Positions 23,242 through 61,355 of a stretch of 64,000 nucleotides of DNA are shown in pieces. A program made the position numbers and the translations under genes. This DNA is from Candidatus Poribacteria bacterium (GTDB lineage: Bacteria; Poribacteria; WGA-4E; WGA-3G). Location: contig VXMD01000030.1 of assembly GCA_009841255.1 (NCBI GenBank), positions 27,148 through 91,147 on the forward strand, given 5' to 3'. The notes beneath the pieces are model-generated. The model did not search any database. It had not been told where the DNA came from and saw only the letters and a program-made list of their open reading frames with translations. The stretch's first letter is position 1, and every line of letters begins with the position of its first letter.

Positions 23242-23937
23242 ATGAAAATTATGATGGTATTAGCAGGATTTGTGTTGATGATAGCCTATTGTGTTATCGG
23301 CACGAGCGACATGGCACAGGCGGAGGAAGTCTTAGGAACAGGAACAGATTCACTGCTGGGAGGAGACCTAACCGACCCAGAAGACGATGGTGAACCTGAA
23401 GCCGATAAAGGTTACAACGCCACTTTCTCAGCCAACGATGAACCCGGATTCGCGGGCGGCGAATTTGCGTTTAACGTCTTCGATAACCGCCTTGGCCCCA
23501 GCAATGATAAATGGTGCTGCGGACGTGGAGGCGGCATCCCGAAAGAAGGTCTACACGTGACAGCTGAGTTTGAGGAGCAGTACGCATTAACACACTTCAC
23601 CGTATCTTCAGCGAACGATGTTCCACCGAGGGACCCCACAGTGTGGGAGGTTCAGGGGTCGAACGACGGCAAAGATTTTACGACCATCTATGCTCACGAC
23701 GGGAAAAGTTTTTGGGAGCAGCGACTGCAAGTCGTCCTTTTTGAGGCAGGGGAAGATTACGACGTTCAAAAAACTGGGTATCGGTTTTTTCGACATGTTA
23801 CTTTTGACACCGCATCGAACCCGGCTGGGGCGTACTTTCAAATTGGCGAAATTGAGTTCTTCGGCGATGATAGTTTTCCTGTAGACCCCAGAGCCAAACT
23901 CGCAACCACATGGGGACACATCAAAAACGTCCGATAA
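23242..23937 (+). CDS. Secreted discoidin/F5-8-type-C-like domain protein with C-terminal TTWG tail
   Basis: AGGAG lies 10 nt before ATG 23242. Signal peptide MKIMMVLAGFVLMIAYCVIG..AQA. Contains WEVQGSNDGKDFTTIY and ends PVDPRAKLATTWGHIKNVR. Confidence 0.7.
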   Translation: MKIMMVLAGFVLMIAYCVIGTSDMAQAEEVLGTGTDSLLGGDLTDPEDDGEPEADKGYNATFSANDEPGFAGGEFAFNVFDNRLGPSNDKWCCGRGGGIPKEGLHVTAEFEEQYALTHFTVSSANDVPPRDPTVWEVQGSNDGKDFTTIYAHDGKSFWEQRLQVVLFEAGEDYDVQKTGYRFFRHVTFDTASNPAGAYFQIGEIEFFGDDSFPVDPRAKLATTWGHIKNVR

Positions 23938-23963
23938 GCGCAAATATCGGACATTTTCTAAAT

Positions 23964-24002
23964 CGGCTTGAATCCAGTAATAACTTGGTTCGAGCCGTTT
24001 TT
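23964..24002 (+). terminator. Rho-independent terminator
   Basis: CGGCUUGAAUC-loop-GGUUCGAGCCG (11 bp including 2 G-U pairs) followed by UUUUU. Confidence 0.7.
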
Positions 24003-24075
24003 CATATCTGCTTGAAACCGCTCAAAGCGCATCGCCAAAAACACCCTTAAGGAATTGAACATCAAGGAACAGTTG

Positions 24076-24996
24076 TTAAACACTCTTAATCTTCCCTAAA
24101 ATAGCGCCAACAATATCCGATGTTGATTCCCGATCCAGCCAGTCAATGCGTGTATCTTTGCGGAACCATGTCAACTGTCGTTTGGCGAACCGACGGGTGT
24201 TCCGTTTCAGTTGTGAGATCGCTTCCAGATATGTGCAGTCTCCGTCGAGATACGCGATTAACTCTCGATAGCCGAAACTTTGGAGCGCGACTGAGTCCCG
24301 TGCATATCCCATCGCTAACAACGATTCAACCTCTGCTATCAATCCATTGGCAAGCATCACGTCTACGCGCTGTTCGATACGACGGTATAGCAGCGCACGC
24401 GGCATCGTGAGTCCGAAGGCGATGAACGGATATCGCTGTTTTTTGGGATGCCACTGCTGTTGGAGTTCGGACATCGGAGTGCCTGTCAATTCATAGACCT
24501 CTAAAGCACGAATGACACGGACGACGTTGTTCGGATGGATGCGTTCAGCAGATTCTGGATCACAGGCTCGAAGCCGGTTGTGGAGGTGATCAACCCCGTG
24601 TTGTGCCGCTTCCGCTTCAAGTCGCTTTCGGAGTGTAGGGTGCGCTCCCGGTCCCTCAAACAAACCGTCAACAATCGCTCGGAAATAGAGTCCCGCACCG
24701 CCAACCAGCAACATCCGCTTGCCCCTGTTTTGGATGTCGGCAATTGCTATGTCTGCGAGGGATTGATAGTCGGCAACGGAGAAGCGTTGGGAAATGTCGA
24801 CGCAGTCTATGAGGTGATGCTGTGCTGTCTGCTGTTCCTCAGGGGTGGGTTTGGCGGTGCCGATATCCATCTGTCGATAGATTTGGCGAGAATCGACAGA
24901 GACAATCTCGGCATTGAGACGTTGTGCGAGTTGGATCGCTATTTCTGTTTTGCCAACTGCTGTGGGACCGAGAAGGCAGACGAGTTTTGACTTCAT
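24076..24996 (-). CDS. miaA: tRNA dimethylallyltransferase
   Basis: P-loop GPTAVGKT, SVDSRQIYRQMDIGTAKPT, and overall MiaA layout. Confidence 0.9.
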   Translation of the reverse strand: MKSKLVCLLGPTAVGKTEIAIQLAQRLNAEIVSVDSRQIYRQMDIGTAKPTPEEQQTAQHHLIDCVDISQRFSVADYQSLADIAIADIQNRGKRMLLVGGAGLYFRAIVDGLFEGPGAHPTLRKRLEAEAAQHGVDHLHNRLRACDPESAERIHPNNVVRVIRALEVYELTGTPMSELQQQWHPKKQRYPFIAFGLTMPRALLYRRIEQRVDVMLANGLIAEVESLLAMGYARDSVALQSFGYRELIAYLDGDCTYLEAISQLKRNTRRFAKRQLTWFRKDTRIDWLDRESTSDIVGAILGKIKSV

Positions 24997-24997
24997 T

Positions 24998-25477
24998 TCA
25001 AGATGCCGCCGCTTTCAACTTGGGAAGCCACCGTGAAAAGAAGGCAATCGCTTTCGGATCCCGGCAATGCGGCGCGCACAAGTATTTGCCCCTGCTGCTT
25101 TCAGTATAGCCTAAGGCAAAGATCCCAAAAACTTGCCATCCGATAGTGGTAACACCTCCAGCAAGGCCCCCGATACTCACAACACCAACAGCGTTGCATC
25201 CAATGGCTATAATACCGATAGCATTGTACCCGATAGCAATAACACCTGCAACGTTGTACCCGACAGCGATAAGTCCTCCAACATTAACACCAATGGCAAT
25301 AAGACTGACAAAGTTTAAACCAAAAGTGAGTGGACCGTAAGCGTGGACATTCATATAGTGGAGAAAAAAGGGAAGCACAGATACAAAAGCCATCAAGATG
25401 CCGTAAGCAATACTCCACCTTACTAAATACGGTTTGAAGGTTTTTTTAAAGTTTTCAGGAGTGGTTGTAACTTGCAT
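24998..25477 (-). CDS. Small membrane protein with six decapeptide Gly-rich repeats (G-x4-G-x-N-x2)
   Basis: GLIAVGYNVA GVIAIGYNAI GIIAIGCNAV GVVSIGGLAG GVTTIGWQVF. It lies between mnmA and miaA with a 1-nt gap to miaA. The start is uncertain: the tracked TTG 25510 lies in a hairpin, so ATG 25477 is preferred. Confidence 0.55.
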   Translation of the reverse strand: MQVTTTPENFKKTFKPYLVRWSIAYGILMAFVSVLPFFLHYMNVHAYGPLTFGLNFVSLIAIGVNVGGLIAVGYNVAGVIAIGYNAIGIIAIGCNAVGVVSIGGLAGGVTTIGWQVFGIFALGYTESSRGKYLCAPHCRDPKAIAFFSRWLPKLKAAAS

Positions 25478-25527
25478 TTGGCGAACCCTTAGTAGAGCGT
25501 TGGGTTTCAACTCCGTTTCAACCCAAC

Positions 25528-26628: not shown

Positions 26629-26715
26629 TTTTTAAATGATCCGCAAAGCGTTAAACCAAGCAATTGGTTCAACAACGATATGCACTTAAGAGCCGCCTGC
26701 GCTGTTGTTGCAGAC
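26629..26715 (-). repeat. Variant leader repeat (core octamer inverted) upstream of mnmA
   Basis: The plus strand reads tttttaaatgatccgcaaagcg directly after the start codon, and agagccgcctgcgctgttgttgcag matches 58423..58447 and 57062..57075. Confidence 0.55.
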
Positions 26716-26775
26716 TACCATCACTTTATAGTCAAAGCATCCAAACCTATATGGAGCTCCCAAAGTTTAGTTTCT

Positions 26776-27390
26776 TTAGCGAGCACTCTTCAATTTACCC
26801 CATGTCGTCGTGAGCTTGTCCGTTGCCTCCACAGGCGCCGCTCCGGAACCACGCGTCAGGAATACCCAGTACGTGGGAGCCAAGTTCGCAGGTGCATCGT
26901 TGTTGCCACCGAGGGATATGTCCCCCGCGGGAAACTCCTTGTTCCGCAGGACGAAAATATCCGTATCGCCTTCATTGGTTTGGAGCAAATAATCAGGCTG
27001 CTCTGTCCATCCTTCACCGTCTGAAGCCCATTTTGGCGGACTCCCCCACCTTTTGTCAGTCGCTAACCAAACGACGACAGGAATTTCAACTCTAAATGTG
27101 ATGAAATCAGCACCCTTAGAGCCTTCATCGTCCATTGCCGTCATGATAAACGTTGCGCCTTCTAATTCTTTTGACATATCCTTGACGAAATAATCCCTGT
27201 CAATGAGATAGATGCTACCTTTCTCAAGCCCCTCCTCGCCCACAACGTAATCACCGACAACACTCCTTGATTCGAGATCCATGACCTCTATATCCTCAAC
27301 GACTACATCCTGTGCCTGAACTGGAGGAAGATAAAAAGATGCGAAGAGAAAACAGGGTAAAATTAAACAGGCAAATCTTTTGATATACAT
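26776..27390 (-). CDS. Secreted hypothetical protein with C-terminal TTWG tail
   Basis: Signal peptide MYIKRFACLILPCFLFASFYLPPVQAQ. Ends PVEATDKLTTTWGKLKSAR. Confidence 0.65.
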   Translation of the reverse strand: MYIKRFACLILPCFLFASFYLPPVQAQDVVVEDIEVMDLESRSVVGDYVVGEEGLEKGSIYLIDRDYFVKDMSKELEGATFIMTAMDDEGSKGADFITFRVEIPVVVWLATDKRWGSPPKWASDGEGWTEQPDYLLQTNEGDTDIFVLRNKEFPAGDISLGGNNDAPANLAPTYWVFLTRGSGAAPVEATDKLTTTWGKLKSAR

Positions 27391-29867: not shown

Positions 29868-31058
29868 CTACTCCAGTACGAGGAGCAGTTCATTGAGTGC
29901 GTCTTTCACCATATCGTTGGTTTCGGTCTCCCTGAAGTAAACGTCAAGCTTATGGGGCAGATTATCGTACTGGTCAGCCTCTTGGATCTGCTTTATCAAA
30001 GCAGGTTTCTTAAGAAGTTGAACGATACGGAGTCTGTCTTCATGATCGACGACTTCAGGATTGGCTAACAAAACGATCAAACGTCCGGCTAATCCGTCTG
30101 CGAGTCCATTTTCGGCGTAATGGTTCAACGTATCCATAGCGGTTTGCTTTGTGTTGAGACTTGAGCCGTTTGTGAGGATTGCGACGAGACCATCAACAGC
30201 GCCTGCGTCAGGATACTTTTGCAGTGCTTTAGCAACATCCATACGCACGATGTCATCGGAATCGTCAAGCGCATCAATCAACATGTCAGTTGGGTGTTCT
30301 TTGAGGAACATCATAGACTTTGCGGCAGCGCGTCGGACAATAGGGTTCGCATCGGTCAAACCCTTGACGATTTTTGCTTCGGCAGCTTCGTTTCCGAGCA
30401 GATAGAGTGCGGTGTTAATTTCCATCTGCAACCCTTCGTCAGTGGTCGCGTTGTTGAGTGCCTCTAACCCAGCAGCGGCAGATGCATCCCCTATATCACC
30501 AACGATACGGACGAGCTGAATCTTCACAGCAGGTGGCGTCTTGCTGTCGCCAGCAGTCTTGAGGATGTCGTTAAGAGCTGGACTGCCGATGTCCTTCAAG
30601 ATCTGGACGAAGTCACCATGGACATTGCGATAGCGGTTTTTAACGAGGTCCTCCAACACGAAAGGTACGGCGGGTGCCCCCTTATCAACGAGGACCTGCA
30701 TGGCATCCTTCTGGACCCTATGGCGTTCCCCAAGAATATGCAGGATTCTCTTCATCTCATATTCGCCCAATTCACCGACACGGCGGTCCCGTTTAGTTTT
30801 ATAGTCGGCTTCCACATTATGCATTCTTGCCGCGCCCGTTGAAATCGCATGGCTATAAGCAATAATCAGGAGTGCACGAGGTTCAACCTTGTTGTCTTCT
30901 TCCTTTTCAGCATTCTCAAGATGCTGGACCGCTTCGAGTGTGAGTCCCGCGTCTAATAATTTACTCCTGCCAACTTCAAGTTGGGTGATGACCTGTTCCG
31001 GCTTACAGCCGAAACTCACGACTCCTATAAGTAGTAGTATCAGCAAAAGTTTTTTCAT
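29868..31058 (-). CDS. HEAT-repeat protein, probable lipoprotein (paralog A)
   Basis: AGGAGG lies before ATG 31058. Signal MKKLLLILLLIGVVSFGC. HEAT-like DANPIVRRAAAKSM and DDSDDIVRMDVAKAL. The tracked start is 31196. Confidence 0.65.
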   Translation of the reverse strand: MKKLLLILLLIGVVSFGCKPEQVITQLEVGRSKLLDAGLTLEAVQHLENAEKEEDNKVEPRALLIIAYSHAISTGAARMHNVEADYKTKRDRRVGELGEYEMKRILHILGERHRVQKDAMQVLVDKGAPAVPFVLEDLVKNRYRNVHGDFVQILKDIGSPALNDILKTAGDSKTPPAVKIQLVRIVGDIGDASAAAGLEALNNATTDEGLQMEINTALYLLGNEAAEAKIVKGLTDANPIVRRAAAKSMMFLKEHPTDMLIDALDDSDDIVRMDVAKALQKYPDAGAVDGLVAILTNGSSLNTKQTAMDTLNHYAENGLADGLAGRLIVLLANPEVVDHEDRLRIVQLLKKPALIKQIQEADQYDNLPHKLDVYFRETETNDMVKDALNELLLVLE

Positions 31059-31502
31059 GTTCCGTTTATCTTTTCCTCCTGAAATCTCGATTAGACTCAC
31101 CCATTCCTGCCGCGTGTCGCGCGTATGCTTCACAAAAACAGTGCGCGCTATTCGATAGAGCGCAACTTGCAAGCAGACAAAAAAGTATCCATCCAATACT
31201 TTTCAGTAGAATTTGGCAAGGAAGTTTTGTAGGTTCTGTATATCACAATATATTTAACCCCTACCAAACAGGAATTACACATCTGGGCAAGTACTGATGT
31301 AAAGAATATTCTAAAATAAATACATTTTTATGTCAACAATTTAAGTGCAGGCGGCAAAGCAACGCCGTTTTCCCTCAAAACCGTGTGAATCCTTTTGTAG
31401 GAACGGGCATTCTCCAACTGCCAGATTGCGTTTCTCCGATAAAACGCGTAGGAAAACTGAACGCCATTTGCAAAAAATATAGATAAGCGATGAATTGTCG
31501 AA

Positions 31503-32699
31503 CTACTGAAGCGCATCAAGGAGTTGCTTAAGCGACGTTTTGACGAGTTCGCTCTGTTCCTTTTGCTTATGATATTCATAGAGTGTGAACTCAAGATTGT
31601 CGTACAATTCCGTCACCTGAATCTGTTTCACAAACGGCTCCCTTTTCAGAAGTTGAACGAGATGGAGCCGATTGTCTGCGTCGCTAACGGTTCCGCCAAT
31701 GAGCAACATTGTAATGCGCTTTGCCAAGCCTCTCGCCAGCTTGTTTTGTCCATAAATGTCAAGCGTATTAATCGCCGCCTGCTTCGGATCTTTGCTCAAT
31801 CCACCGGTAAGAATATTTACGAGTTCATCGACAGCGTCAGCATCCCGATGCACTGCGAGTGCTTCCACAAGTGATGCGACGACTTCAGAGTCAGTATCTT
31901 TTAACCCCGCAATGAGTGTTTTGGATGACACATCGCTGATATTTGTCATGGCTTTTGCGGCGGTGCGTCGGACAGCAACATCACTATGAGTTAAGCCAGC
32001 GATGATATCCTTCTTATAGGACTCTTCACCGAGCTGATAAAGTGTCGTGTTAATTTCCATCGCCAAAGCAGCTTCGCCCGTTCCACTTTGAAGCATTTTT
32101 AGCGCATCTATGGCTTTTGTATCGCCGATTCCCGCAAGGACCTGAACGAGTTTAACCTTGACGGCAGGCGGCGTCGTTTCATCAGTAAGCTTTGCTAAAA
32201 CCAAGTCAAGACCATCAGAACCTATCTGAATCAGCATTCCTGCAAAATTTGCATGAAGTGATGGATATCTTCCTTTGATGAGACTGTCAAGAATTATTGC
32301 CGATACTTCAGGTCCCTTATCTACCAGTGCCTGTAAGCCATCTTTCTGTACCCGCGACGGTGTGCTGAGAATTTGTAGGATTTGCCGTATCTCCGCCTCG
32401 GTGAGTTCTTGTATCCGCTGTTCACGTTGATTTTTGAACTTGGCTTCAACGCCATGGCTACTCGCACTTCCGGTAGAAAGTCCGTGAGAGTAAGCAATAA
32501 CGAGTAGCGCGCGCGGCTCCAGTTTATTAACCTCTTCCTCTTCTGCTTTTTCGAGGTGATCAACGGCTTCCAAGGCGTTACCGCTGTCAATCAATTTACT
32601 CCTGCCTACGGATAGGTTGCTCGGCCCCTTCTGTTTTGTCTCACAGCCGACTCCGGCAAACAGTAGGACAACCAGTGGAATGATCACAACCTTTTTCAT
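31503..32699 (-). CDS. HEAT-repeat protein, probable lipoprotein (paralog B)
   Basis: Colinear with paralog A (LSVGRSKLIDSGNALEAVDHLEKAEEEE.. vs LEVGRSKLLDAGLTLEAVQHLENAEKEE..). Signal MKKVVIIPLVVLLFAGVGC. Confidence 0.65.
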   Translation of the reverse strand: MKKVVIIPLVVLLFAGVGCETKQKGPSNLSVGRSKLIDSGNALEAVDHLEKAEEEEVNKLEPRALLVIAYSHGLSTGSASSHGVEAKFKNQREQRIQELTEAEIRQILQILSTPSRVQKDGLQALVDKGPEVSAIILDSLIKGRYPSLHANFAGMLIQIGSDGLDLVLAKLTDETTPPAVKVKLVQVLAGIGDTKAIDALKMLQSGTGEAALAMEINTTLYQLGEESYKKDIIAGLTHSDVAVRRTAAKAMTNISDVSSKTLIAGLKDTDSEVVASLVEALAVHRDADAVDELVNILTGGLSKDPKQAAINTLDIYGQNKLARGLAKRITMLLIGGTVSDADNRLHLVQLLKREPFVKQIQVTELYDNLEFTLYEYHKQKEQSELVKTSLKQLLDALQ

Positions 32700-33048: not shown

Positions 33049-33077
33049 TTGACATGTGTGCCGGTTTTGGCTATACT
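33049..33077 (+). promoter_or_regulatory. Sigma70-type promoter of the M14 peptidase/GH32-like operon
   Basis: TTGACA-17 nt-TATACT. Confidence 0.55.
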
Positions 33078-33088
33078 TGCTGTCATGC

Positions 33089-35923
33089 ATGAAAAATAAA
33101 ATGTGCCGAGGACAATGTGTCAATAACAGAAGAAGAATGAAAATTAAACTGTTCGTGTCTATAGAAAAGGAACCTCTCATGAAAATCTCTGACATCTTTC
33201 ACGCCAATTTCATATCTCCGTTTTATCAACAAAACACATCGCAAGCTGGAACTCGCTTCTACAAAGAGGTCGATAGGACAACGCCATGGCGTATACGCAG
33301 TGCGTTGCTAATAATAACAGTGTGTGTTGTATTGCTACAAGCACCGGTCCACGCGCAACTGATGGCCCCTGAAGAGGTACTCGGATTTCAGGTCGGTTCT
33401 GACTATCAGGTCGCAGGATGGCAGACAGTTTCTGATTACATGCGACATGCAGCAGCGAATTCAGATCGGGTTTTGTTGGAAGAACTCGGAAAAACGACGG
33501 AAGGTAACGATTTTCTGATGTTGTTGATTTCTGCGCCAGAGAACTTAGAGAATTTGGCACACTATCAGCAAATTCAAAGACGGATCGCCCTGCCCAATGC
33601 GCCGATAAATGAAGACAGCGCGGCAGAATTGGGCGCGCTCGCGGAAGAAGGTAAAGCGGTCGTCCTGATTAATTGTAATCTGCATTCCACAGAGATCGCC
33701 TCTTCACAGATGTCAATGGAGCTTGTGCATCAATTCGCAACCGCTGAGACACCACACATCAAAGAGATTCTTGAAAATGTGATAATTCTGCTCATCCCCT
33801 CGGCGAATCCGGATGGTTTGGACATCGTGGTAGATTGGTATAATCGCACTGTCGGCACACCTTATGAAGGGTCGGAAATCCCGTGGTTGTATCATAAATA
33901 TACGGGACACGATAACAATCGCGATTGGTTTATGTTGACCCAGATAGAGACACGGATATTGACGCAGGTGCTTTACGAAGAATGGTTTCCGGAGGTCGTC
34001 TACGATGTGCATGAAATGAGTTACCGGGGACCGCGGTTTGTGATTCCCCCCTACTTCGAGCCGGTCAATCCGAATATCCCACCGCTTTTACAACGGACGC
34101 TTTCGCTTATCGGTGCGCAACTCGCTTTCGATTTGACGAGTGAAGGATTTACAGGTGTGCTTTCGAGTGCCGTCTACGATACATGGTGGCACGGCGGATT
34201 TCGGACGGTTCCGTATCGCCACAATATGGTAGGGATTTTGACGGAAGCGGCACGTGTGGAGATAGCAACGCCAATTTTCCAACCGCATCACACTTTGAAA
34301 GGCTACCGACGCGGGCTCGATAAATATACACTCCGCACGAACTTCCCTGAACCGTGGCCCGGGGGCTGGTGGCGACTGCGAGACATCGTAGAATACGAGA
34401 AAGCAGCGGCACTGTCAATTCTCTCTTTCGCCGCGGAACATCGGGTAACGCTGAAGACCAACTTTTACAAGATGGGACTCCATGCTATAGCGAAAGGGAC
34501 AGATGAACCGCCACGTGCGTTCCTGATTCCGACACAACAACGCGACATCCACACAACACTCAAGATGTTGGATATTTTACGACGCGGTGGCGTGGAGATT
34601 CATCAAGCAAACGCCCCGTTTATCGCTGATGGTGTAGAATATCCCGCGGAGACCTATGTCGTTTCGATGTCCCAACCGTTTCGGGCACATGCGAAGGACC
34701 TGCTTGAGGTGCAACGCTATCCGGAACGTCGGCCTTCACCGGAATCACCGCCCGAACGCCCTTACGATATCGCGGGCTGGACCCTCCCGTTACAGATGGC
34801 GGTGAGAACAGTCGCAGTCGTACATCCCTTTGAGGCGGATTTAACGAAACTTTCCGTCCTATCCGAAGTGGAAGGAATGTTAGAGGACGTTCCCGAACCG
34901 ACAGGTTATCTGTTTGAGAACCGAACGAACACCGAAACGATTGTCCTTAACCATCTGCTTAAAGCGAGATTCGCAGACAACAGTCCGAGATACACACTCT
35001 ATTCGGCACAGCGGCGGGACGTAGAACTCGCTGGTAAAACACTTCCACGTGGGACTATCCTGATTCGAACGGCAGAACCGCCGTTACAACAGAGAGAAGA
35101 GATCCGAGCACTCGCATCGGAATTCGGTATCCACATCCACGCCGATGCCTCCATTGACGAAGACACCACCAATCAAGAATTCTCAAGGATGAACGCCCCG
35201 CGCCTCGGTCTGTATAAACCGTGGACAGCAAACATGGACGAAGGTTGGACGCGCTGGGTTTTGGATACGCATGCGTTCAATTACAGCAGTCTCACAAACG
35301 CGGAAATGCGCGCCGGGGATTTGGCGGTGCGTTACGATGCAATCATTCTGCCGGATTTCGGTGCTTCCGGTATTCTTAACGGGCACGCAATAGGGAAATT
35401 ACCGCCGGAGTATGTCGGTGGGATCGGGACGGAAGGGTTGGCGAATTTACGAATGTTCGTGGAGAACGGTGGCACGCTTATCTGCTTGAATCGTGCGTCA
35501 GAGCTTCCTTTGAAATACTTCGGACTCGGTGAAAAGGGCATTGTCAACGTGGTCGCGAAAGAGAATCAACCGAAGGAGGGTGCGTTTTTCTGCCCCGGCT
35601 CATTACTACGGGTTCGGATAGACACGAAACACCCCATCGGACATGGACTGGACGCAGAGATGGCAATCTTTTTTAAATTTGGACCTGTCTTTGAAGCCGG
35701 ACGTGGTGGTGCGAAAGCTATAGCGACCTATCCTGAGTTCAATCCGTTGATGAGCGGTTGGCTCGAAGGCGAGAAACGGATCCGCAAGAAAGCGGCACTT
35801 CTGGAAGTCCCCTTGGGCGATGGGCGCGTGATCCTTTTCGGTTTCAAACCGCAGCATCGAGGGCAATCTCAGGGAACTTTTAAACTGCTTTTCAATGCGA
35901 TTTTTTACAGCGCACAAGACTAA
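33089..35923 (+). CDS. M14-family metallocarboxypeptidase-like protein with C-terminal class-I-amidotransferase-like domain
   Basis: HSTE (HxxE) zinc motif, LIPSANPDGL, HEMS. Internal signal-like segment RIRSALLIITVCVVLLQAPVHAQ. The start is uncertain (ATG 33089, 33137 or 33179). The tracked GTG 33056 lies inside the promoter. Confidence 0.7.
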   Translation: MKNKMCRGQCVNNRRRMKIKLFVSIEKEPLMKISDIFHANFISPFYQQNTSQAGTRFYKEVDRTTPWRIRSALLIITVCVVLLQAPVHAQLMAPEEVLGFQVGSDYQVAGWQTVSDYMRHAAANSDRVLLEELGKTTEGNDFLMLLISAPENLENLAHYQQIQRRIALPNAPINEDSAAELGALAEEGKAVVLINCNLHSTEIASSQMSMELVHQFATAETPHIKEILENVIILLIPSANPDGLDIVVDWYNRTVGTPYEGSEIPWLYHKYTGHDNNRDWFMLTQIETRILTQVLYEEWFPEVVYDVHEMSYRGPRFVIPPYFEPVNPNIPPLLQRTLSLIGAQLAFDLTSEGFTGVLSSAVYDTWWHGGFRTVPYRHNMVGILTEAARVEIATPIFQPHHTLKGYRRGLDKYTLRTNFPEPWPGGWWRLRDIVEYEKAAALSILSFAAEHRVTLKTNFYKMGLHAIAKGTDEPPRAFLIPTQQRDIHTTLKMLDILRRGGVEIHQANAPFIADGVEYPAETYVVSMSQPFRAHAKDLLEVQRYPERRPSPESPPERPYDIAGWTLPLQMAVRTVAVVHPFEADLTKLSVLSEVEGMLEDVPEPTGYLFENRTNTETIVLNHLLKARFADNSPRYTLYSAQRRDVELAGKTLPRGTILIRTAEPPLQQREEIRALASEFGIHIHADASIDEDTTNQEFSRMNAPRLGLYKPWTANMDEGWTRWVLDTHAFNYSSLTNAEMRAGDLAVRYDAIILPDFGASGILNGHAIGKLPPEYVGGIGTEGLANLRMFVENGGTLICLNRASELPLKYFGLGEKGIVNVVAKENQPKEGAFFCPGSLLRVRIDTKHPIGHGLDAEMAIFFKFGPVFEAGRGGAKAIATYPEFNPLMSGWLEGEKRIRKKAALLEVPLGDGRVILFGFKPQHRGQSQGTFKLLFNAIFYSAQD

Positions 35924-38179: not shown

Positions 38180-40213
38180 TCAACGAGAGGGTTGCGCCAC
38201 ACACCGAAATCCCAGATAGTGAATCTGCGTTGGATGTTCTCTGTTGCGGTTACTCACACGGATGAGGTTATCATAGTTTTCCCAACTCCCACCGCGTATC
38301 ACACGTGCTGATGTTATCGCTTTGTAGTTTGCTAATATCTTACCTCCTAAGGGATTCTCTCGCGGACTGGAAGTGTAGAAATCCTGCTGATATTCATCAA
38401 GACACCACTCCCAAGCATTGCCTGCCATGTCGTAAAGTCCATAGCCATTGGGCGGAAAACTGCCAACTGGGAATGTCGCTTTTCCATCACTGGCTCCCAG
38501 AAAATCGTAATTTGCCCAGTGCTGCTCATCATCCTCCGGTGCCGTGTTGCCCCATGGATATTTCTTCCCAGCCAAACCACCACGCGCCGCTTTCTCCCAT
38601 TCTGCTTCAGTAGGTAACCGTTTTCCTGCCCATTCCGCATACGCCATCGCATCATACCATGTAACCCCGATGACCGGATAGTTGGGTTGATTGTATTGTG
38701 GGTCCTCCCAACGTTTTGTCGGTTCCGGGTGTCCCGTAGATGAGATAAACTGTTTGTATTGGGCGACTGTCACTTCGTATTTATCAATATAAAAAGCATC
38801 GAGGTGAACGGTGTGGATCGGTTTTTCATCTGGATCCCCCATGTTGCTACCCATCTGAAACTCACCGGCGGGAACAAGCACCATCTCGGCTCCATCTTTC
38901 TCCCAAACGATGGTTTCAAGCGGCATCGTGTTTGCTTGTTTCGATGATGCAACGGTTGTAAGCTGCTCAAGCACAGCACCCGCCAGATCCAATCCTTCCA
39001 GACTCCAGAGCGTAAGATGTGAAGCGTCTTTGATCAGGATGCGTTTATCCAAGATGACTGGATGCGCCCAAGTTGTGCTATCCGCAATTGAATACCGAGC
39101 TACCGGCTCAAACGCTTCGGCACTCGGCTTGACGATAATCAGTTTTGCATCACCTGTTAAACAGAATAATAGCTCACCGGCACTGACAATCGACGCATAT
39201 TCCCCCTGCCGTCCCTCGCTTGCCCAAAGGACCTCCCCTGTCCACGGGTCGAGGCAGAAGAATTGACCTTTACGCTGCATAGAAAATCCATACAACAAGT
39301 CACCGTTCAAAACAAACGATGCGGTATACATGTGAATCTTCGGATTGTCCCATACCTGTTCAGCTGCCCATTCATCATCCTCTCTACGGACTCGGATCGC
39401 ACGTGTCCCCGTCTCCGCAGCCGAAAGCACGACGGTATCTTTATAACGAACCGGAGTCGGAACGGTCTCGTCCCATACCTGTTCAAAGGGTGTTTTCCAA
39501 TAGAGTTTGCCGGTGGTCGGTGAGATGCCGATGCAGTATTTCCGGGTGAGTGCGACAAGTTGTTTTATGCCGTCAAACTCAACACAGATTGGCGATGCGT
39601 AGGACGGTCCATCTTCAGTCCACTCCCACGCGACATCACCTGTACGTGCATCAAATGCAGTCAAGGCACCGTTCTTCGGCTCACCCACATGGACGATGCA
39701 GTAACCTGCCACCACAATCGGCGATGTTGAACTCCCAAAGCCGAGGTGTTTTTTGAAATCTTTACGCCAAAGCAGTTGTCCTGTTTCGGTGTCGAATGCA
39801 GAGAGGGCTTGCGTGACGCCTAAAGTATAGACGATCCCATCTTGAATCACCGGTGTGGAAAATGGACCTTGACCCCGCGACTCTGCACCATGCCAGGGCC
39901 ACATGTAAGGCACCGGTCCATAGGAATTCTGCCAAAGTATCTCACCCGTTTCGAGGTTAAGTGCAGTAACGACTTCGTTTTCTTTCTGCCGTGTGTGCGT
40001 GTAAATCCGACCTTCCGCAACGATAGGCGAAGCGTCACCGCTCCCCAACTCTACATGCCATAGTTTTTTAAGTTGTTTTGGCCACACCTCTGGTGCAGAG
40101 AATTGCGTCAAGATACCATCTCGGTTTTGTCCGCGCCATTGTGACCATTCGGCGGACGCGACGGTGGCACAAAGGCATACAATGATCCAGATGTTTTTGG
40201 AAAGTCTTTTCAT
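38180..40213 (-). CDS. Secreted PQQ-like beta-propeller fused to a formylglycine-generating-enzyme (FGE-sulfatase) domain
   Basis: GAGGAG lies before ATG 40213. Signal MKRLSKNIWIIVCLCATVASA. C-terminal domain has YIDKYEVTVAQY, VIGVTWYDAMAYAEWAGKRLPTEAEWE and RVIRGGSW. Confidence 0.75.
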   Translation of the reverse strand: MKRLSKNIWIIVCLCATVASAEWSQWRGQNRDGILTQFSAPEVWPKQLKKLWHVELGSGDASPIVAEGRIYTHTRQKENEVVTALNLETGEILWQNSYGPVPYMWPWHGAESRGQGPFSTPVIQDGIVYTLGVTQALSAFDTETGQLLWRKDFKKHLGFGSSTSPIVVAGYCIVHVGEPKNGALTAFDARTGDVAWEWTEDGPSYASPICVEFDGIKQLVALTRKYCIGISPTTGKLYWKTPFEQVWDETVPTPVRYKDTVVLSAAETGTRAIRVRREDDEWAAEQVWDNPKIHMYTASFVLNGDLLYGFSMQRKGQFFCLDPWTGEVLWASEGRQGEYASIVSAGELLFCLTGDAKLIIVKPSAEAFEPVARYSIADSTTWAHPVILDKRILIKDASHLTLWSLEGLDLAGAVLEQLTTVASSKQANTMPLETIVWEKDGAEMVLVPAGEFQMGSNMGDPDEKPIHTVHLDAFYIDKYEVTVAQYKQFISSTGHPEPTKRWEDPQYNQPNYPVIGVTWYDAMAYAEWAGKRLPTEAEWEKAARGGLAGKKYPWGNTAPEDDEQHWANYDFLGASDGKATFPVGSFPPNGYGLYDMAGNAWEWCLDEYQQDFYTSSPRENPLGGKILANYKAITSARVIRGGSWENYDNLIRVSNRNREHPTQIHYLGFRCVAQPSR

Positions 40214-40382
40214 TTTTCTCCTCTTGATGGGTAAGTCGGATTTATGGATTCTCACGTTCCGTTTTTCCTATCTCTCATAAACAGCGTGCGAGAACTTCTG
40301 TAGCACCGGTAGTCCCCCATACCCCTCGCGCTCCGCACAGCCCTGCGATGATGGAAATATCCGATGCTACTTTTCGCCCGGA

Positions 40383-44209: not shown

Positions 44210-44977
44210 TTAGCGAGGGCGTATGTCAACTTTTTTAATCATTCCCCACGTCTCAAGGCGTTTGCCGATCGGATCAACACTTTGGTGGAACTCTCCTGTG
44301 TCGTAGACCTCAACAGTCGCAAATGGGGCATCATTGTGGGCTGGTCCGTCAATGATATAGATATTCCCATTTATGACCTCAGCTTTATGCCCGGCTTTGG
44401 CAACAGGCATGTCGGGTTTCTGGGTCCAACGCCCAGTTCGGGGGTGGTAGATTTCGATTGTTTTAAAATCTTTCGTATCCTGTCCCTGATTCCGAAAATG
44501 ACCGCCCATCACATAAATTTTTCCGTTGATGACACTTGCAGTATGAACCGATTTGGGAGTAGGCATATCACCTATTTCGCGCCAATGATTTTTTTCGGGG
44601 TTATAGATTTCTATACTGGAAAGAAAGGGACCCGGATGATTTATAATCAGGGGCAATCCGGTTCCTCCCATGACGTAAATCTTTCCGTCAACAACACTGA
44701 CTGCGGCACCAGCACGCGCATGGTTCATGTCCTTGGCTTTTGCCCATGTGTCAGTAGTTGGGTCATATATCTCGACGGTGTCTAAACGAAACGACTTTAT
44801 CTTGGTTGATGTCCCGCCGATTGCGTAGATTTTCCCATCAACGACGCATGTGCTGGTGTTTCTGGGTGTAGGCATGTTGGCTTTCTGCTTCCAAGCTCCG
44901 TCCGCTGCGAGATTGAGAACCTGGATTCCTGATAGTATCCATAGCATCAGGATACCTAAAGTCAAACGCATTTTCAT
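44210..44977 (-). CDS. Secreted Kelch-repeat protein with C-terminal TWG tail
   Basis: Signal peptide. Repeats DGKIYAIGG, DGKIYVMGG, NGKIYVMGG and NGNIYIIDG. Ends SVDPIGKRLETWGMIKKVDIRPR. Confidence 0.75.
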   Translation of the reverse strand: MKMRLTLGILMLWILSGIQVLNLAADGAWKQKANMPTPRNTSTCVVDGKIYAIGGTSTKIKSFRLDTVEIYDPTTDTWAKAKDMNHARAGAAVSVVDGKIYVMGGTGLPLIINHPGPFLSSIEIYNPEKNHWREIGDMPTPKSVHTASVINGKIYVMGGHFRNQGQDTKDFKTIEIYHPRTGRWTQKPDMPVAKAGHKAEVINGNIYIIDGPAHNDAPFATVEVYDTGEFHQSVDPIGKRLETWGMIKKVDIRPR

Positions 44978-44990: not shown

Positions 44991-45974
44991 TCACTCTTTC
45001 TTTTTCACCTCTGCCCATGTTGTGGTTAGCAACTGTGGTTGTGGTGAAACCGGCAGAGCATATGCTGGGTCAAACCAATCCGCCGGAGTATTCCAGCTGC
45101 CAATATGCGTGAGTTGTTCCGGCTGACCTCCATTCAAAGCAATTTTGAAGATTTGCTTCGCTTCGTGTTTCCATTTTGCATATAGGAGTTCATCCGCTCG
45201 TGGGGACCAAACCGGATCCGTCGCTCGCGGGCCGGCTTTAGCAACAATTTGTGTAAGTCCTGTACCATCTCGATTTACAGTATAGATGGTCTCCTCGCTC
45301 CTAAATGTCTTAAGCGGCACTTTAGGTTGCCAAGAAAACGCGAGTTTGTTACGCCTCGGAGACCACGCCGGAATAGATCCCATCCACGTGGGTATCGCTT
45401 TGGGCGGGAAAAACACTTTCTGTTTTCGCGTGCGCACATTGAGGATATGCATTTCCCAACGGTCCTGTCCGGCTTTGACGGTATAAGCTATTTCCATTCC
45501 ATCCGGCGACCATGCAGGACCGCTGCCAATCGCCAAGCGTTCTTCTTTTTTCTTGTCTATTGAAGCGATATAGATAACCCTTTTGCCTTGCTCGCGTCGC
45601 GTATAAGCGATCTGTTTGCCATCCGGCGACCATGCTGGAGCCTCCCTATGGGCAGATTTGCCAAACACCCGTCGCACGTTTTGCCCATCCGGATCCATTA
45701 GATACAGGTCGTACCCTTTGTCTCGATCTGAGGCGAAAAGAATTTGCTCTCCCGTGGGGGACCAAGCCCCATAGATGTCATCTGCTGGATGGTTCGTTAT
45801 GTTAATCTGATCACTTCCATCTGGATTCATCAAGTAGAGATCTCGATTTCCGTCGCGACTTGCTCCAAACACAATTTTGGCAGTAGTCGGAGCTTTTGCC
45901 AACACAGGACAGATTCTCGCCCCTAACAGTGCGAAGATGAAAATGAAAATAAGGACTAACATTGACGGTTTCAT
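44991..45974 (-). CDS. Secreted TolB-like PD40 beta-propeller protein with C-terminal TTW tail
   Basis: Signal peptide. Repeated WSP(D/T)G..IA(Y/F) blades. Ends PVSPQPQLLTTTWAEVKKKE. Confidence 0.75.
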   Translation of the reverse strand: MKPSMLVLIFIFIFALLGARICPVLAKAPTTAKIVFGASRDGNRDLYLMNPDGSDQINITNHPADDIYGAWSPTGEQILFASDRDKGYDLYLMDPDGQNVRRVFGKSAHREAPAWSPDGKQIAYTRREQGKRVIYIASIDKKKEERLAIGSGPAWSPDGMEIAYTVKAGQDRWEMHILNVRTRKQKVFFPPKAIPTWMGSIPAWSPRRNKLAFSWQPKVPLKTFRSEETIYTVNRDGTGLTQIVAKAGPRATDPVWSPRADELLYAKWKHEAKQIFKIALNGGQPEQLTHIGSWNTPADWFDPAYALPVSPQPQLLTTTWAEVKKKE

Positions 45975-48083: not shown

Positions 48084-49556
48084 TTACTTTAACACGTTTA
48101 CGTTGTTCTCCGGCTGGGTATAGTCCACATATTCCGTCGGATCGGTGCCGTTGAGATATTCCTCAATGTTGGTGTATCCGTCGTTGTCAGTGTCCTGTGA
48201 GGTATTGGAAGCGTCTTGCGAATCAAGCCCATACCGCTTTTCCCATTCGTCGGGCATACCGTCCGCATCACTATCAAGCGGCGCAGGCAGGCTTTTGAGC
48301 TGGGGCCAGCCACCAACGTCTGCCTGTGAGTCAATCATACCACATTTTTTGGATGCATCCAGCACGCGTCTCTTATTTTTGTATGTTACCCCTTCATAAG
48401 TGGCATAGCCGTTACGGGTTTCGTCAATAATGCGTGTATCAATTGAATCGCGTTTGGGCAACGCGGCACCGACACTCTCAAGAACAGTAGCATAGGCCTC
48501 TTCAGCGGTTTGCTGGTTGATAGGTATAGCGTCAAAAGGTTCGTCAAGTTTGAGTCCCGCAATATGTGAACTGCCACCCTGAGGTTGCACGCCACCGTCC
48601 CAGTTATTCGCAGTAACTGTAGGATTGCCATGAACAACGTTATCGGCAACATACCACTTGCCGAAACCGTCATCCAAATTACCCGATGATGGATTAATAA
48701 TGCGGTAAGCCCTTTCGCCGGGACGGGTCGCAGGTCCTGGCTTAAAATAATTGGCTACCATATTGACAACAGTAAAGTTAAACTTCTCACTGTCTTGGTG
48801 TTGTTTTTCGCCCCCATAGGCGCCGTTATAACCCCAGTTGTATATCACATTATTTCTGAAATCGTTATATCCGCAACCCGATGCAAAACGCGGATTACGG
48901 CTGCTGTGGTGCGCCAGCAGATTATGGTGGTACGTGCTACGGTCTGACCCCCATATTCCGCCAAACCCGTGCGTACCTTTGACATGGCCCGCATTGTATA
49001 GACTCTCCGATATCAGACACCATTGAATCGTCACATTTTCGCAGTAGTAGATAGATACCGTTTCATCAATACTCCAACTCGCCGATACATGGTCAAGGAT
49101 AATGTTCTTGTGATACCTGCCTGATATTGCATCTGCGTCATTATCCGTTTCATCTCCCAATCTCACCCTTATATATCTAATAATAACCTCGCTGGCATTA
49201 ATTGAGAGCTGATATTTTTTAATACAGATACCATCGCCTGGAGCCGTTTGTCCAGCGATGGTGATATAGGGATTAGAAATTGTCAATCGACTTTCAAGCG
49301 TGATCGTCCCCGAAACCGTGAACACAACAATCCGCGGTCCCGCAGTTTCGCAGGCTTCGCGCAAACTCCCCGGTCCGGAGTCGTTTAGATTCGTCACCAA
49401 GATTACCTTTCCACCCCTACCACCGAGTGTCATCGCGCCATAACCTTCAGCACCCGGAAATGCGGGAACAGACGGAGTCTCCGCTGCCAATCCGTTTGGG
49501 ACCAGCACGAGAATACCAGCACAGAGAAAAAGAATAAAGGAACGAAAGGAATCCAT
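48084..49556 (-). CDS. Secreted pectate lyase-like (right-handed beta-helix) enzyme with C-terminal Ca-binding TSP3/dockerin-like repeats
   Basis: Signal peptide, AFPGAEGYGAMTLGGRGGKVILVTNLNDSGPGSLREA, and C-terminal DSDADGMPDEWE..DTDNDGYTNIEEY. Confidence 0.75.
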   Translation of the reverse strand: MDSFRSFILFLCAGILVLVPNGLAAETPSVPAFPGAEGYGAMTLGGRGGKVILVTNLNDSGPGSLREACETAGPRIVVFTVSGTITLESRLTISNPYITIAGQTAPGDGICIKKYQLSINASEVIIRYIRVRLGDETDNDADAISGRYHKNIILDHVSASWSIDETVSIYYCENVTIQWCLISESLYNAGHVKGTHGFGGIWGSDRSTYHHNLLAHHSSRNPRFASGCGYNDFRNNVIYNWGYNGAYGGEKQHQDSEKFNFTVVNMVANYFKPGPATRPGERAYRIINPSSGNLDDGFGKWYVADNVVHGNPTVTANNWDGGVQPQGGSSHIAGLKLDEPFDAIPINQQTAEEAYATVLESVGAALPKRDSIDTRIIDETRNGYATYEGVTYKNKRRVLDASKKCGMIDSQADVGGWPQLKSLPAPLDSDADGMPDEWEKRYGLDSQDASNTSQDTDNDGYTNIEEYLNGTDPTEYVDYTQPENNVNVLK

Positions 49557-58450: not shown

Positions 58451-58473
58451 ATCTTCGTCTGGATAAGGTCTGC

Positions 58474-59226: not shown

Positions 59227-59307
59227 GCGTATAGAGGCTTGTGGGACAATGTGAGGCAGAAATTACTGTGCTTTTCCTAAGGTAAGCTTGTATACGAAAT
59301 CGTTAAT

Positions 59308-59336
59308 AGTATAGCACAAAACGCAAAATTTGTCAA
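59308..59336 (-). promoter_or_regulatory. Sigma70-type promoter of the epimerase gene
   Basis: Minus strand reads TTGACA-17 nt-TATACT. Confidence 0.55.
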
Positions 59337-59356
59337 ATTTTGAATGGCGTGCAAGA

Positions 59357-60421
59357 TCAGACACGCGACAAAACCTGGCGAACCTGTGAATCCAAATCTG
59401 GGGGAGGATCAAAAGGCAACTCAATCGGCTTGTGAGAAATCGCACTCGCATAGATGCCTAAAATCGCATTGAACTGGTGCAATGCAAGTTTTAGGTTTGT
59501 TTCGACCGGACGGGTGTCGTCTTCAATCCAGTCGAACATCGCCTGCGTCAGATTGGCTTGCGCGAGGTCGTTTTTTGCGCGCCAAGAATCGGGGGTTTGC
59601 ACGCCGTTCTCGGTGAATCGAGCGGTGACGATTTCCCATCCATTGAATTCCTCAAAGAGGACGTGTCCGTTCTCACCATAGGCGGCAACGCGACAGTGCT
59701 TGTAGATGGTATCGTCGTCTATGACGCGTGGGGAGGTAAAGCCGGTGTTCCAGAATCCGTGAACCCCGTTTTCAAACACGACCTGACACGACGATGTATC
59801 GGGAGCGGGGTAGTCGCTATCAAATGACTCAGCACCGCTCGCAGTGCCAAAGACCCTCACAATGGGTGAATCGTTGTTCAGGGACATCGCCCAGTCAATG
59901 ATATGCGTGCCTTGGGCGGTGAGGTTCATACCACACGAAAAATCTAAAAGGCGAATCTTTCCCAATTCGCCACTCTCTACTGTCTTTCGACAAGTGGCGA
60001 AGTCGGGATGCCACCGGTACTGTTTGCCGACCCCGAATTTTGTGGAGGTCTGCGCCTCTAATTCGCATAGAAAACGCCAATCCTCGACCCCGCAGGCAAT
60101 CGGTTTCTCAACGAGGCACGCCGGAACACCCAGTTCTGATACCATTGGCATCAGTTCACGCCACTGGTCGGGCATTGCGACGAGGTGAACTAAGTCAGGC
60201 TGTTCTGTGCGGAGCATTTGTTCGGCATCTGCATAGCCGGTAATCCCGAAGGTTTCGGCGAATTTCTCACGTCGAGCGATATCCGAACGGTTGGCGCACG
60301 CGACTAATTTGGCACTCGAAACGTGTTGATAGGCGTTTGCATGACCGTAGGCTCTGCCCCCGCAGCCAATGATCGCACTTCTTTTAGTCTTACCTTGCGG
60401 TTCGATTCGGTGCGTTTTCAT
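59357..60421 (-). CDS. Gfo/Idh/MocA family oxidoreductase
   Basis: Rossmann SAIIGCGGRAYGHANAY. ATG 60421 directly follows a leader repeat. Residues 6-13 (EPQGKTKR) are encoded by a second, in-frame leader-like copy (ccgcaaggtaagactaaaag). Confidence 0.8.
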   Translation of the reverse strand: MKTHRIEPQGKTKRSAIIGCGGRAYGHANAYQHVSSAKLVACANRSDIARREKFAETFGITGYADAEQMLRTEQPDLVHLVAMPDQWRELMPMVSELGVPACLVEKPIACGVEDWRFLCELEAQTSTKFGVGKQYRWHPDFATCRKTVESGELGKIRLLDFSCGMNLTAQGTHIIDWAMSLNNDSPIVRVFGTASGAESFDSDYPAPDTSSCQVVFENGVHGFWNTGFTSPRVIDDDTIYKHCRVAAYGENGHVLFEEFNGWEIVTARFTENGVQTPDSWRAKNDLAQANLTQAMFDWIEDDTRPVETNLKLALHQFNAILGIYASAISHKPIELPFDPPPDLDSQVRQVLSRV

Positions 60422-60515
60422 CTTTTTAATGATTCCTTGCGGAGAAATCAAGTGGGTTAAAAACTATCAAGGACATCTCTTAAATCCGCCCTCCACTTCG
60501 TTACGGGCTACGCGT
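60422..60515 (-). repeat. Leader repeat
   Basis: The plus strand reads ctttttaatgattccttgcggagaaatcaag ... atccgccctccacttcgttacgggctac. Confidence 0.85.
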
Positions 60516-60521
60516 CTTTCT

Positions 60522-61355
60522 CTACCTTTTTAGGCGTGCCCACACTGTCGTCAAACGCCCTTCTGGTGATACAGGCGTAAATCCAAAGAGTTTCCCAAGC
60601 CCCTCGTTCATGATGTCATTGATATCGGCTTCACTTAATGCGGTGTTGAAAACAGCAACATCGTCCATGAGCCCCCATGCGGGTCGCTGATCGACCATAC
60701 CCCCAATCTGAAGCGATTGTCCCGTCAATCCAAAAACACCACCGGTATTGGCTTGTGCATCCACTTTGCCATCTACATAGGCAATCATCTTCTTTCCATC
60801 GTAAGTGAAAGCGATGTGATGCCATTTATCGTCGTTGACGAGCGTTGGACCTGCAACCCACGCTGGTGCGAGCTGTCCACTGCCGATTTCAACTTTACCG
60901 TGACCGCCACCGCGTCCGGGTCCAAATATGTTCAGTAGACACGTATATTTGAAATTAATGATGGCGTGGTCGTCGTTACAGCAACCGCCCAGGACGACTT
61001 TCTCTTTTTTCTGGAGTTTCACCCACGTCGTCGTGGTATATGTCTCAGCACAACTGTCCAAACTCTTTGAAGCCTCGACCATCGCGACTTGGAATTTGTT
61101 ATCACCGGAGAGACTTAAAGCTTTGTCGAATTTCCCATCATCTACCAATTCGGCACCTTTCAGCAATTCAGCATCGTTGCCATTCTCTGTAGAATCCGGA
61201 GAAATATCTTTGTTATTGACCTCATCAAAAAGCCATACGCCAACGATGCTCTTTGTATCAATCGCCGCGTCACTCACAGACACAAATATCGCCGAAACAG
61301 CTATTAAACAAACCATCCGCAGAATAAATAGTTTTCGCACAACAATTTTCTCCAT
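60522..61355 (-). CDS. Secreted LamG/concanavalin-like domain protein with C-terminal TTVW tail
   Basis: Signal peptide. VGVWLFDE..NGNDAEL.GAELVDDGKFDKALSLSG and WHHIAFTYDGKKMIAYVDG. Ends PVSPEGRLTTVWARLKR. Confidence 0.75.
   Translation of the reverse strand: MEKIVVRKLFILRMVCLIAVSAIFVSVSDAAIDTKSIVGVWLFDEVNNKDISPDSTENGNDAELLKGAELVDDGKFDKALSLSGDNKFQVAMVEASKSLDSCAETYTTTTWVKLQKKEKVVLGGCCNDDHAIINFKYTCLLNIFGPGRGGGHGKVEIGSGQLAPAWVAGPTLVNDDKWHHIAFTYDGKKMIAYVDGKVDAQANTGGVFGLTGQSLQIGGMVDQRPAWGLMDDVAVFNTALSEADINDIMNEGLGKLFGFTPVSPEGRLTTVWARLKR

Follow-up and report, generated by a model that had tools for sequence, protein, structure and literature searches.

A short conserved C-terminal tail on secreted proteins of Candidatus Poribacteria, a candidate recognition or docking tag

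In this study, we describe a short C-terminal tail shared by five exported proteins of different folds encoded in a 64,000-nucleotide stretch of DNA from a Candidatus Poribacteria bacterium (GenBank assembly GCA_009841255.1, contig VXMD01000030.1, positions 27,148 to 91,147), hereafter called the window. Poribacteria are dominant uncultured symbionts of sponges whose biology is known almost wholly from genomes, and the window sequence is present in sponge metagenomes. A six-frame scan of the window found the pattern W[GA].[ILVM]K eight times; five of these occurrences lie 1–7 residues ahead of the stop codon of open reading frames (ORFs) longer than 200 aa, and the remaining three fall in short non-coding frames. 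All five ORFs end in V-x-P-x-x-[KR]-L-T-T-[TV]-W-[GA]-x-[ILV]-K plus 1–7 residues, as a preliminary description of the window had claimed with inner coordinates about 6 nt short of the peptide, an immaterial difference. A hidden Markov model (HMM) of the tail, a profile built from 32 tails and scored against the 385 six-frame ORFs of the window, matches exactly these five at 21–31 bits. The five genes and their tails, each tail given with its stop codon, are as follows:

23104..23937, + strand: ORF of the discoidin-like tail protein; Pfam F5_F8_type_C at E 4.9e-5, a weak match under the gathering score
23878..23937, + strand: tail PVDPRAKLATTWGHIKNVR and stop of the discoidin-like (F5/8-type-C) protein; HMM 30.4 bits
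26776..27390, - strand: ORF of a small secreted beta-sandwich protein without a Pfam family, assigned by AlphaFold2 (AF2) and Foldseek
26776..26835, - strand: tail PVEATDKLTTTWGKLKSAR and stop of the beta-sandwich protein; HMM 27.0 bits
44210..44977, - strand: ORF of a secreted Kelch beta-propeller tail protein; Pfam Kelch_1 at E 7.6e-48
44210..44281, - strand: divergent tail SVDPIGKRLETWGMIKKVDIRPR and stop of the Kelch protein, with seven trailing residues, the longest of the five; HMM 26.4 bits
44991..45974, - strand: ORF of a secreted PD40/TolB-like propeller tail protein; Pfam PD40 at E 5.9e-25, TIGR02800 a partial match
44991..45053, - strand: tail PVSPQPQLLTTTWAEVKKKE and stop of the PD40 protein, with a one-residue insertion ahead of L-T-T-T-W; HMM 21.5 bits
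60522..61355, - strand: ORF of a secreted single-domain LamG (Laminin_G_3) tail protein; Pfam E 5.6e-21
60522..60575, - strand: tail PVSPEGRLTTVWARLKR and stop of the LamG protein; HMM 31.4 bits

The recurrence of the tail in the window is real and far above chance: the core was observed within the last 12 residues of five among 64 ORFs of at least 150 aa, as against a mean of 0.011 and a maximum of 1 in 5000 shuffles. The preliminary description had further held that the five proteins are of unrelated fold, that they carry N-terminal signal peptides and that other secreted products of the window (the pectate lyase, the fusion with a formylglycine-generating enzyme (FGE) and the lipoproteins) lack the tail, and these statements are borne out. 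LamG, Kelch and PD40 are assigned by Pfam and F5/8 type C weakly so, while the protein formerly listed as hypothetical is a beta-sandwich by Foldseek, its fold resembling the accessory sandwich domains of the glycoside hydrolase family 2 beta-glucuronidase 6hpd (E 8.7e-7, TMq 0.58) and of the family 138 enzyme 6hzf. A signal-peptide-like N-terminal segment is seen in the translations of all five; for the discoidin-like ORF we infer a likely true start at Met47 (about nt 23242), after which comes the signal peptide MKIMMVLAGFVLMIAYCVIGTSDMAQA. The tail is absent from the pectate lyase (48084..49556), the PQQ–FGE fusion (38180..40255), the lipoproteins at 7725..8357, 29868..31196 and 31503..32699, and the M14 peptidase (33056..35923). 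The PD40 gene precedes the Kelch gene by 13 nt in the same orientation, and relatives of both at 92–96% identity occur in contigs of one metatranscriptome run, which is weak evidence that they are expressed because DNA carry-over is possible in such a run.

The conservation of the tail resides in the protein and not in the DNA. The codons of its conserved residues differ synonymously among the five genes (Leu as CTC, CTC, CTT, CTA and TTG; Thr as ACC, ACG and ACA; the small residue after Trp as GGA, GGT or GCA), which identifies the tail as a protein feature, and the DNA downstream of the five genes is mutually unrelated. A homologue search with the LamG protein found the tail retained in 60 of 63 relatives with identity down to 27%, in the form V-x-P-x-G-[KR]-L-[TA]-T-[TV]-W-[GAS]-x-[IVL]-[KR] plus 1–4 residues. 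The three tail-less relatives are one frameshifted sequence, one fragment, and P0061, a 398-aa protein from a JGI metagenome that bears the PEP-CTERM-like end VPEPASNGLLLISGVVIGLIRRRL at the position of the tail; this end, also quoted as AVPEPASNGLLLISGVVIGLIRRRL, was recorded as a natural exchange of C-terminal signals. The beta-sandwich family kept the tail in 26 of the 26 homologues aligned with 26776..27390 (a 27-row alignment), and the homologues P0095–P0102 of the discoidin-like protein retain it as well. Few stretches of the LamG and beta-sandwich families match the tail in conservation; it has 3.0 bits per column vs 2.4 for the LamG domain. The named homologues of tail proteins come from Candidatus Poribacteria.

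Across 175 unique tails the sequence logo reads [LTF]-[APS]-V(96%)-[ED](67%)-P(73%)-x-[GD]-K-L-[TA]-T-T-W(100%)-[GA]-x-[IL]-K, preceded by an acidic, Gly-rich linker and trailed by 1–4 mostly basic or polar, R/K-rich residues with a sharp peak at 2–3, three being the commonest number. Counted from the Trp, position -10 is V in 96% and position -8 is P in 73%, and the V, E/D and P columns constitute independent evidence since they lie outside the search pattern. In both AlphaFold models the tail is predicted to be an appendage outside the folded domain. The AF2 model of the LamG protein, made with family alignments, has a mean pLDDT of 87 with tail residues 264–276 as a low-confidence helix at about 55; that of 26776..27390 has a core at 80–94 and tail residues 185–204 below 50. 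The helical hydrophobic moment is 0.02–0.21 in five of six tails and 0.67 in the LamG tail, and the mean hydrophobicity is negative, which weakens a simple membrane-anchor reading.

The tail is essentially confined to the phylum Poribacteria, in keeping with the lineage specificity suggested beforehand. The pattern K-L-[TA]-T-x-W-[GA]-x-I-K, back-translated with no stop codon in it, was scanned over the DNA of 185,579 species-representative genomes (596 Gb), for which about 26 chance matches are expected from its information content, and at least 120 loci were found. Among the matches listed, about 105 of 120 loci are titled Poribacteria and come from more than 70 assemblies; ten belong to untitled 'uncultured bacterium' metagenome-assembled genomes, and most of the loci without a Poribacteria title carry true tails. 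Three of those listed are titled Pseudomonadota (a sponge bin), Planctomycetota and Deltaproteobacteria; the C-terminal tail is HMM-confirmed in two of them, and the third, L054, is a DNA-pattern match near a stop alone. Loci from Prevotella and Cellvibrionaceae are internal matches that look like chance. A stop codon follows 1–6 codons after the pattern in 130 of the 133 matches listed and after 12 codons in one.

A second DNA pattern, R-L-T-T-x-W-[GA]-x-I-K, run over 241 million metagenome records, gave 22 matches, namely 6 true tails and 16 chance matches. Five of the six true tails terminate ORFs of 257–299 aa with the upstream V-x-P present, and the sixth is fragmentary and sits at the end of a contig. 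The chance matches lie in short ORFs at arbitrary distances from a stop and have no V-x-P, and they act as an internal negative control. Four metagenome contigs that are otherwise unrelated (L124, L129, L133 and L138; GC 0.44–0.58) share the same frame translation ITPWPTVVPxPSCACRLTTAWGEIKTG in short ORFs; a strongly conserved gene or RNA read in another frame is the probable source, and these are chance matches unrelated to the tail.

At the protein level, a padded tail profile searched against an index of 5.8 billion proteins returned 30 short proteins of 37–71 aa, all with KLATTWG and all 30 with the tail at the extreme C terminus, a uniformity that reflects the candidate-collection bias of the index search and makes this a weak confirmation of C-terminal position. 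Five clusters met with at this level (P0067, P0069, P0077, P0078 and P0087) are of called proteins of 38 aa, MKTRxAVDQ..FF..A..ALAIDPxGKLATTWGDIKRK, that consist of linker and tail only, one of them encoded on a 6.3-Mb chromosome; they may be frameshift remnants of the jelly-roll family or free-standing mini-proteins. A representative profile search with 42 columns was dominated by the upstream discoidin segment of its first row, and its 20 matches include several irrelevant repeat proteins. A 674-aa protein, P0106, holds seven internal copies of SFPQNPPGHYVALWGAIKNVEK, which have only the W-G-x-I-K core in common with the tail and no V-x-P...K-L-T-T; this is probably a translated repeat of unrelated origin.

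To gain a view of the carriers, we took a census of 954 kb, mostly poribacterial, made up of the listed DNA-pattern loci and the window, with the tail HMM at a cut-off of 15 bits. It found the tail in 179 ORFs, about 45 of them not seeded by the DNA pattern; 174 of the 179 matches end no more than 7 residues from the stop and no match is more than 30 residues away from it, so that the restriction to the extreme C terminus proposed at the outset holds in the DNA-pattern and HMM matches alike. Reading frame and distance to the stop are constant across these genes, which number over 170 and come from more than 70 genomes. Very many further proteins of the lineage thus carry the tail beyond the window, as had been anticipated. 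Several paralogues supposed to be tail-less in fact carry divergent tails under the threshold, such as KLPVTWGNLK and GTTLWGRLK.

Complete tail ORFs number 166, with lengths that reach 372 aa and have a median of 260 aa, and the 13 left-truncated ones do not exceed 269 aa. The expected association with signal-peptide proteins was also found: by a deliberately crude heuristic, a signal-peptide-like N terminus is present in 151 of the 166 (91%), whereas among control ORFs, all 250 aa or longer, it is present in 151 of 406 (37%). The failures among tail ORFs are mostly fragments. A lipobox occurs in 4 of the 166. By Pfam, 86 of 145 carriers are Laminin_G_3, 10 F5/8 type C, 9 Toxin_R_bind_N, 4 3-keto-disaccharide hydrolase, 3 sialidase-type LamG domains and 2 polysaccharide lyase; Kelch, PD40, HmuY and CBM9 account for one each, and about 35 have no Pfam family. 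The statement that the tail joins unrelated proteins accordingly stands within the window but needs qualification beyond it, given that about 60% of the sampled carriers are single-domain LamG/concanavalin-type proteins and that all complete ones are at most 372 aa; this bias and the small size suit a tag for docking small binding modules no less well than they would a signal for secretion in general.

Tail genes often occur in tandem arrays of 3–4 paralogues (four in L041; others in L040, L084, L009 and L115), which indicates recent local expansion of families. By a rough extrapolation from the window density, the unseeded locus density and the ratio of chance to true matches, rather than by a count, there may be tens to a few hundred tail genes per genome. 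At 45014-45083 of the window, about 70 nt of linker and tail, several metagenome and metatranscriptome contigs map to this place only, with 7–9 mismatches and at a depth of about 960; paralogue tail DNA cross-maps there, and the tail is therefore abundant in the community.

It was previously supposed that the tail matches neither the familiar tripartite sorting signals nor the C-terminal domain of the type IX secretion system, and this agrees with our searches. No NCBIfam or Pfam model covers it at E up to 1 for the full proteins or up to 10 for the isolated tails, and a profile search of the PDB with the tail gave no meaningful match; a match of 10 residues (VSPKGKLATT) near the N terminus of the adhesin 8dj2, at E 0.076, was judged to be chance. 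The motif strings were not found in the papers searched, where on poribacterial sorting or LamG proteins the only remark met with was that on TIGR04183 by Kamke et al., 2014 (PMC3909097). The tail thus appears to be an undescribed ending of 17 residues, of the kind of C-terminal sorting or anchoring tags, with a substantial chance of marking a new system.

Among the recognised signals, PEP-CTERM and the other tripartite signals LPXTG, GlyGly-CTERM, PGF-CTERM and MYXO-CTERM are comparable in that they are short, lineage-restricted C-terminal regions on otherwise unrelated signal-peptide proteins. PEP-CTERM moreover shares with the tail a Pro-containing signature at its start (P-E-P vs V-E-P), a basic end and, in P0061, the same slot. 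However, the tail has V-[ED]-P without the first Pro, does not match TIGR02595, has no transmembrane (TM) helix, continues after V-E-P with 15 polar, T/K-rich residues around an invariant Trp, and is borne by uniformly small proteins. No PEP-CTERM protein and no exosortase (EpsH/Xrt) gene was seen in the 954 kb sampled, a whole-genome protein search not having been made. Neither the signature nor the TM segment of the LPXTG/sortase and GlyGly-CTERM/rhombosortase systems is found in any of the 175 unique tails.

The type A C-terminal domain (CTD) of the type IX secretion system (T9SS), TIGR04183, resembles the tail in lying at the C terminus of Sec-exported proteins of diderm bacteria, in having no TM segment and in an [ILV]-K near the end. 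In contrast to the tail, which is 17–23 aa long, predicted to be disordered and of different signature, it is a folded Ig-like domain of about 70–80 aa. TIGR04183 gave no match on the five window proteins or their isolated tails; as a positive control, three larger poribacterial proteins match it at 28.9–38.5 bits with a cut-off of 23. In the census sample the T9SS CTD proteins measure 530–756 aa vs at most 372 aa for tail proteins. Proteins with a type A CTD lie at L105:5519-7786(+), L003:5593-7422(+), L003:3278-4867(+), L095:4465-6351(+) and L112:701-2386(+); poribacterial proteins of this class have LRR, WD40 or PD40 domains, some with dockerin-like parts, and the motif NYPNPFNPETWIPYQL...GxYFYTLTAGxFxxTRKMLIxK. 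Kamke et al. noted TIGR04183 domains in poribacterial single-cell genomes and found no T9SS structural genes (PMC3909097). A jelly-roll domain is found with the short tail in 13 small proteins and also within an LRR protein whose C terminus is a T9SS type A CTD, and PD40 propellers likewise occur with either ending. Since these two domains bear either ending, the short tail holds the slot of recognised sorting signals.

The comparison also covers other C-terminal elements. Type I secretion signals are about 50 aa, often accompany RTX repeats and go without a Sec signal peptide, whereas 151 of 166 carriers and all five window proteins have a signal-peptide-like N terminus. The beta-signal of outer-membrane proteins closes a barrel strand with a terminal F, Y or W, whereas the last residues here are mostly R, K, Q and N and the carriers are soluble propellers and sandwiches. 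The dockerin–cohesin pair, the cargo-loading peptides of encapsulins and the encapsulation peptides of bacterial microcompartments (BMCs) are like the tail in joining a short conserved terminal peptide through a flexible linker to unrelated cargo and, as is proposed for the tail, in being read by one partner. They have no sequence similarity to it. Encapsulin and BMC cargo is cytoplasmic, whereas the carriers studied here have signal peptides, and dockerins are Ca-binding and about 70 aa long. Poribacteria possess microcompartments; a BMC or encapsulin targeting peptide was ruled out, as the carriers have Sec signal peptides. The C-terminal amphipathic helices of E. coli PBP5 and PBP6 are TM-less, follow Sec-exported soluble domains and combine Trp, Leu or Ile with Lys or Arg, as does the tail, but the hydrophobic moment is low in five of six tails, and the tail is much shorter and is conserved far more strictly than amphipathicity needs. 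A covalent link to peptidoglycan through the invariant Lys, as in Lpp, was considered; nothing speaks for it, and the Lys is not terminal.

We consider it somewhat more probable than its denial, at roughly 0.55, that the tail is a protein-level recognition or docking tag specific to Poribacteria that is read by a shared partner. The tag would be joined by the acidic, Gly-rich linker to small single-domain, beta-rich binding modules, mostly of LamG/concanavalin type and also discoidin, sandwiches like carbohydrate-binding modules, Kelch, PD40 and HmuY. The N-terminal signal peptide would carry the protein across the inner membrane via Sec, and the tail, as the two AlphaFold models predict, would remain flexible outside the folded domain. 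A single conserved partner would then recognise it at a fixed distance from the free C terminus and might either hand the module on for secretion or sorting, perhaps with cleavage near V-E-P, or retain it on the cell envelope or a scaffold by non-covalent docking. We slightly prefer docking or surface tethering over a cleaved export signal, because the carriers are uniformly small single modules plus a tail without a membrane-retention segment. The preliminary description had proposed a sorting, anchoring or secretion tag. None of the in-silico findings that would have refuted it turned up, the tail lying at the extreme C terminus of signal-peptide proteins throughout the lineage and outside any known family, and the proposal is in part supported; the role itself we infer.

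Several points weigh against such a tag. The partner was not found, and clustering of the neighbours of tail genes over the 120 listed loci gave only generally abundant poribacterial families, the recurrent ones being PhyH, Gfo/Idh/MocA, sulfatase, TPR, FGE and ASPIC. The function is deduced from sequence. The strong bias to LamG leaves room for a lectin-specific structural role such as oligomerisation. The low AlphaFold confidence indicates that the tail is unpacked in the monomer and is silent on what it binds, and the signal-peptide heuristic is crude, with a background of 37%. It is possible, though we would not call it probable, that Poribacteria own an unrecognised targeting or surface-display system whose label is the TM-less, approximately 17-residue V-E-P-x-G-K-L-T-T-T-W-G-x-I-K, which would mark roughly a hundred small lectin-like modules in each genome and be read by a dedicated receptor or processing enzyme. 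Such a label would found a new class among the C-terminal sorting signals of diderms, and the system would probably have a central part in presenting the glycan-binding proteins of these uncultured sponge symbionts to the host matrix.

The rival explanations survive in the order of oligomerisation, a derived exosortase or T9SS signal, and an in-plane membrane anchor. It is unlikely, in our estimate, that the tail is an oligomerisation or assembly motif of lectin-like modules, a helix bundle or beta-strand exchange that serves avidity and has no targeting role. Small, LamG-dominated single binding modules, the common tandem paralogue arrays such as the four genes of L041, and the weak helix predicted by AF2 for the LamG tail would all suit it. 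However, the same tail on at least five unrelated folds at a fixed C-terminal distance is unusual for such an element, the helical hydrophobic moment is low, and in related proteins the tail takes the slot of PEP-CTERM or the T9SS CTD.

A further rival is a degenerate PEP-CTERM, in which V-E-P replaces P-E-P and is cleaved in an exosortase-like manner, or a minimal T9SS signal read by the TIGR04183 machinery; V-[ED]-P and the basic end loosely recall PEP-CTERM, P0061 ends in a PEP-CTERM-like manner, and true type A CTDs that also close with [ILV]-K are present in the same genomes. We regard such a derivation as quite unlikely in view of the missing TM helix, the failure of TIGR02595 and TIGR04183 to match, the lack of any PEP-CTERM protein in the 954 kb, a tail that is short and disordered instead of an Ig-like domain of about 75 aa, and the T9SS structural genes that were not found in poribacterial single-cell genomes (PMC3909097).

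Improbable, too, is an in-plane membrane anchor like that of E. coli PBP5/6, a short amphipathic helix with flanking Lys or Arg and an interfacial Trp. L(-4), W(0) and I(+3) would share one helical face between invariant Lys residues on both sides and ahead of a basic C terminus, and AF2 gives the LamG tail a helix of low confidence; the moment of 0.02–0.21 in five of six tails, the negative hydrophobicity and a total of three hydrophobic residues argue against it, and the near-invariant T-T, the small residue after Trp and V-x-P suggest specific protein recognition instead. A DNA or RNA element (a terminator or a repeat at gene ends) or a gene-calling artefact, which the cross-mapping of paralogue tail DNA at about 85% identity in metagenome contigs might recall, is effectively refuted by free synonymous variation, unrelated downstream DNA and the fixed frame and stop distance in more than 170 genes.

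Whatever its function, the tail sets apart a large protein class, as yet unannotated, whose members the motif makes accessible through a simple HMM, and it aids the annotation of many 'hypothetical' and LamG proteins while providing a near-diagnostic marker for poribacterial contigs in metagenome bins. If it is a true address or docking tag, it would imply an undescribed component of the envelope and a way to display lectin-like modules to host glycans. A TM-less short peptide would thereby join the bacterial C-terminal sorting signals. Phylogenetic profiling revealed the partners of earlier C-terminal signals of this kind and is directly applicable to the tail.

With regard to the neighbouring genes of the window, the PD40 and Kelch tail genes are immediately preceded, on their own strand, by a DUF5916 ORF of 474 aa at 46269-47693(-). 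Its end, ...TKIAFTW, resembles the ending of an outer-membrane barrel; as listed it has no signal peptide, and its N terminus looks truncated vs the 572-position Pfam model. The ORF may belong to a pseudogene, or its start may be mis-called. The secreted PQQ–FGE protein at 38180-40255(-) is an unusual fusion in which a PQQ-type beta-propeller is joined to a formylglycine-generating-enzyme domain, and its family was seen in 11 loci. At 35938-38007(+) lies another unusual fusion, of LamG with glycoside hydrolase family 32, that has no evident signal peptide, and at 29868-32699(-) are two tandem paralogous HEAT-repeat lipoproteins, the first of which (29868..31196) is supported by Pfam and the second named from its translation. 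Named likewise from translations are a type I restriction-modification system at 18628-22322(-), with its S subunit at 18628-19944 and M subunit at 20052-22322, and two neighbouring DUF488-like ORFs at 14105-15159(+).

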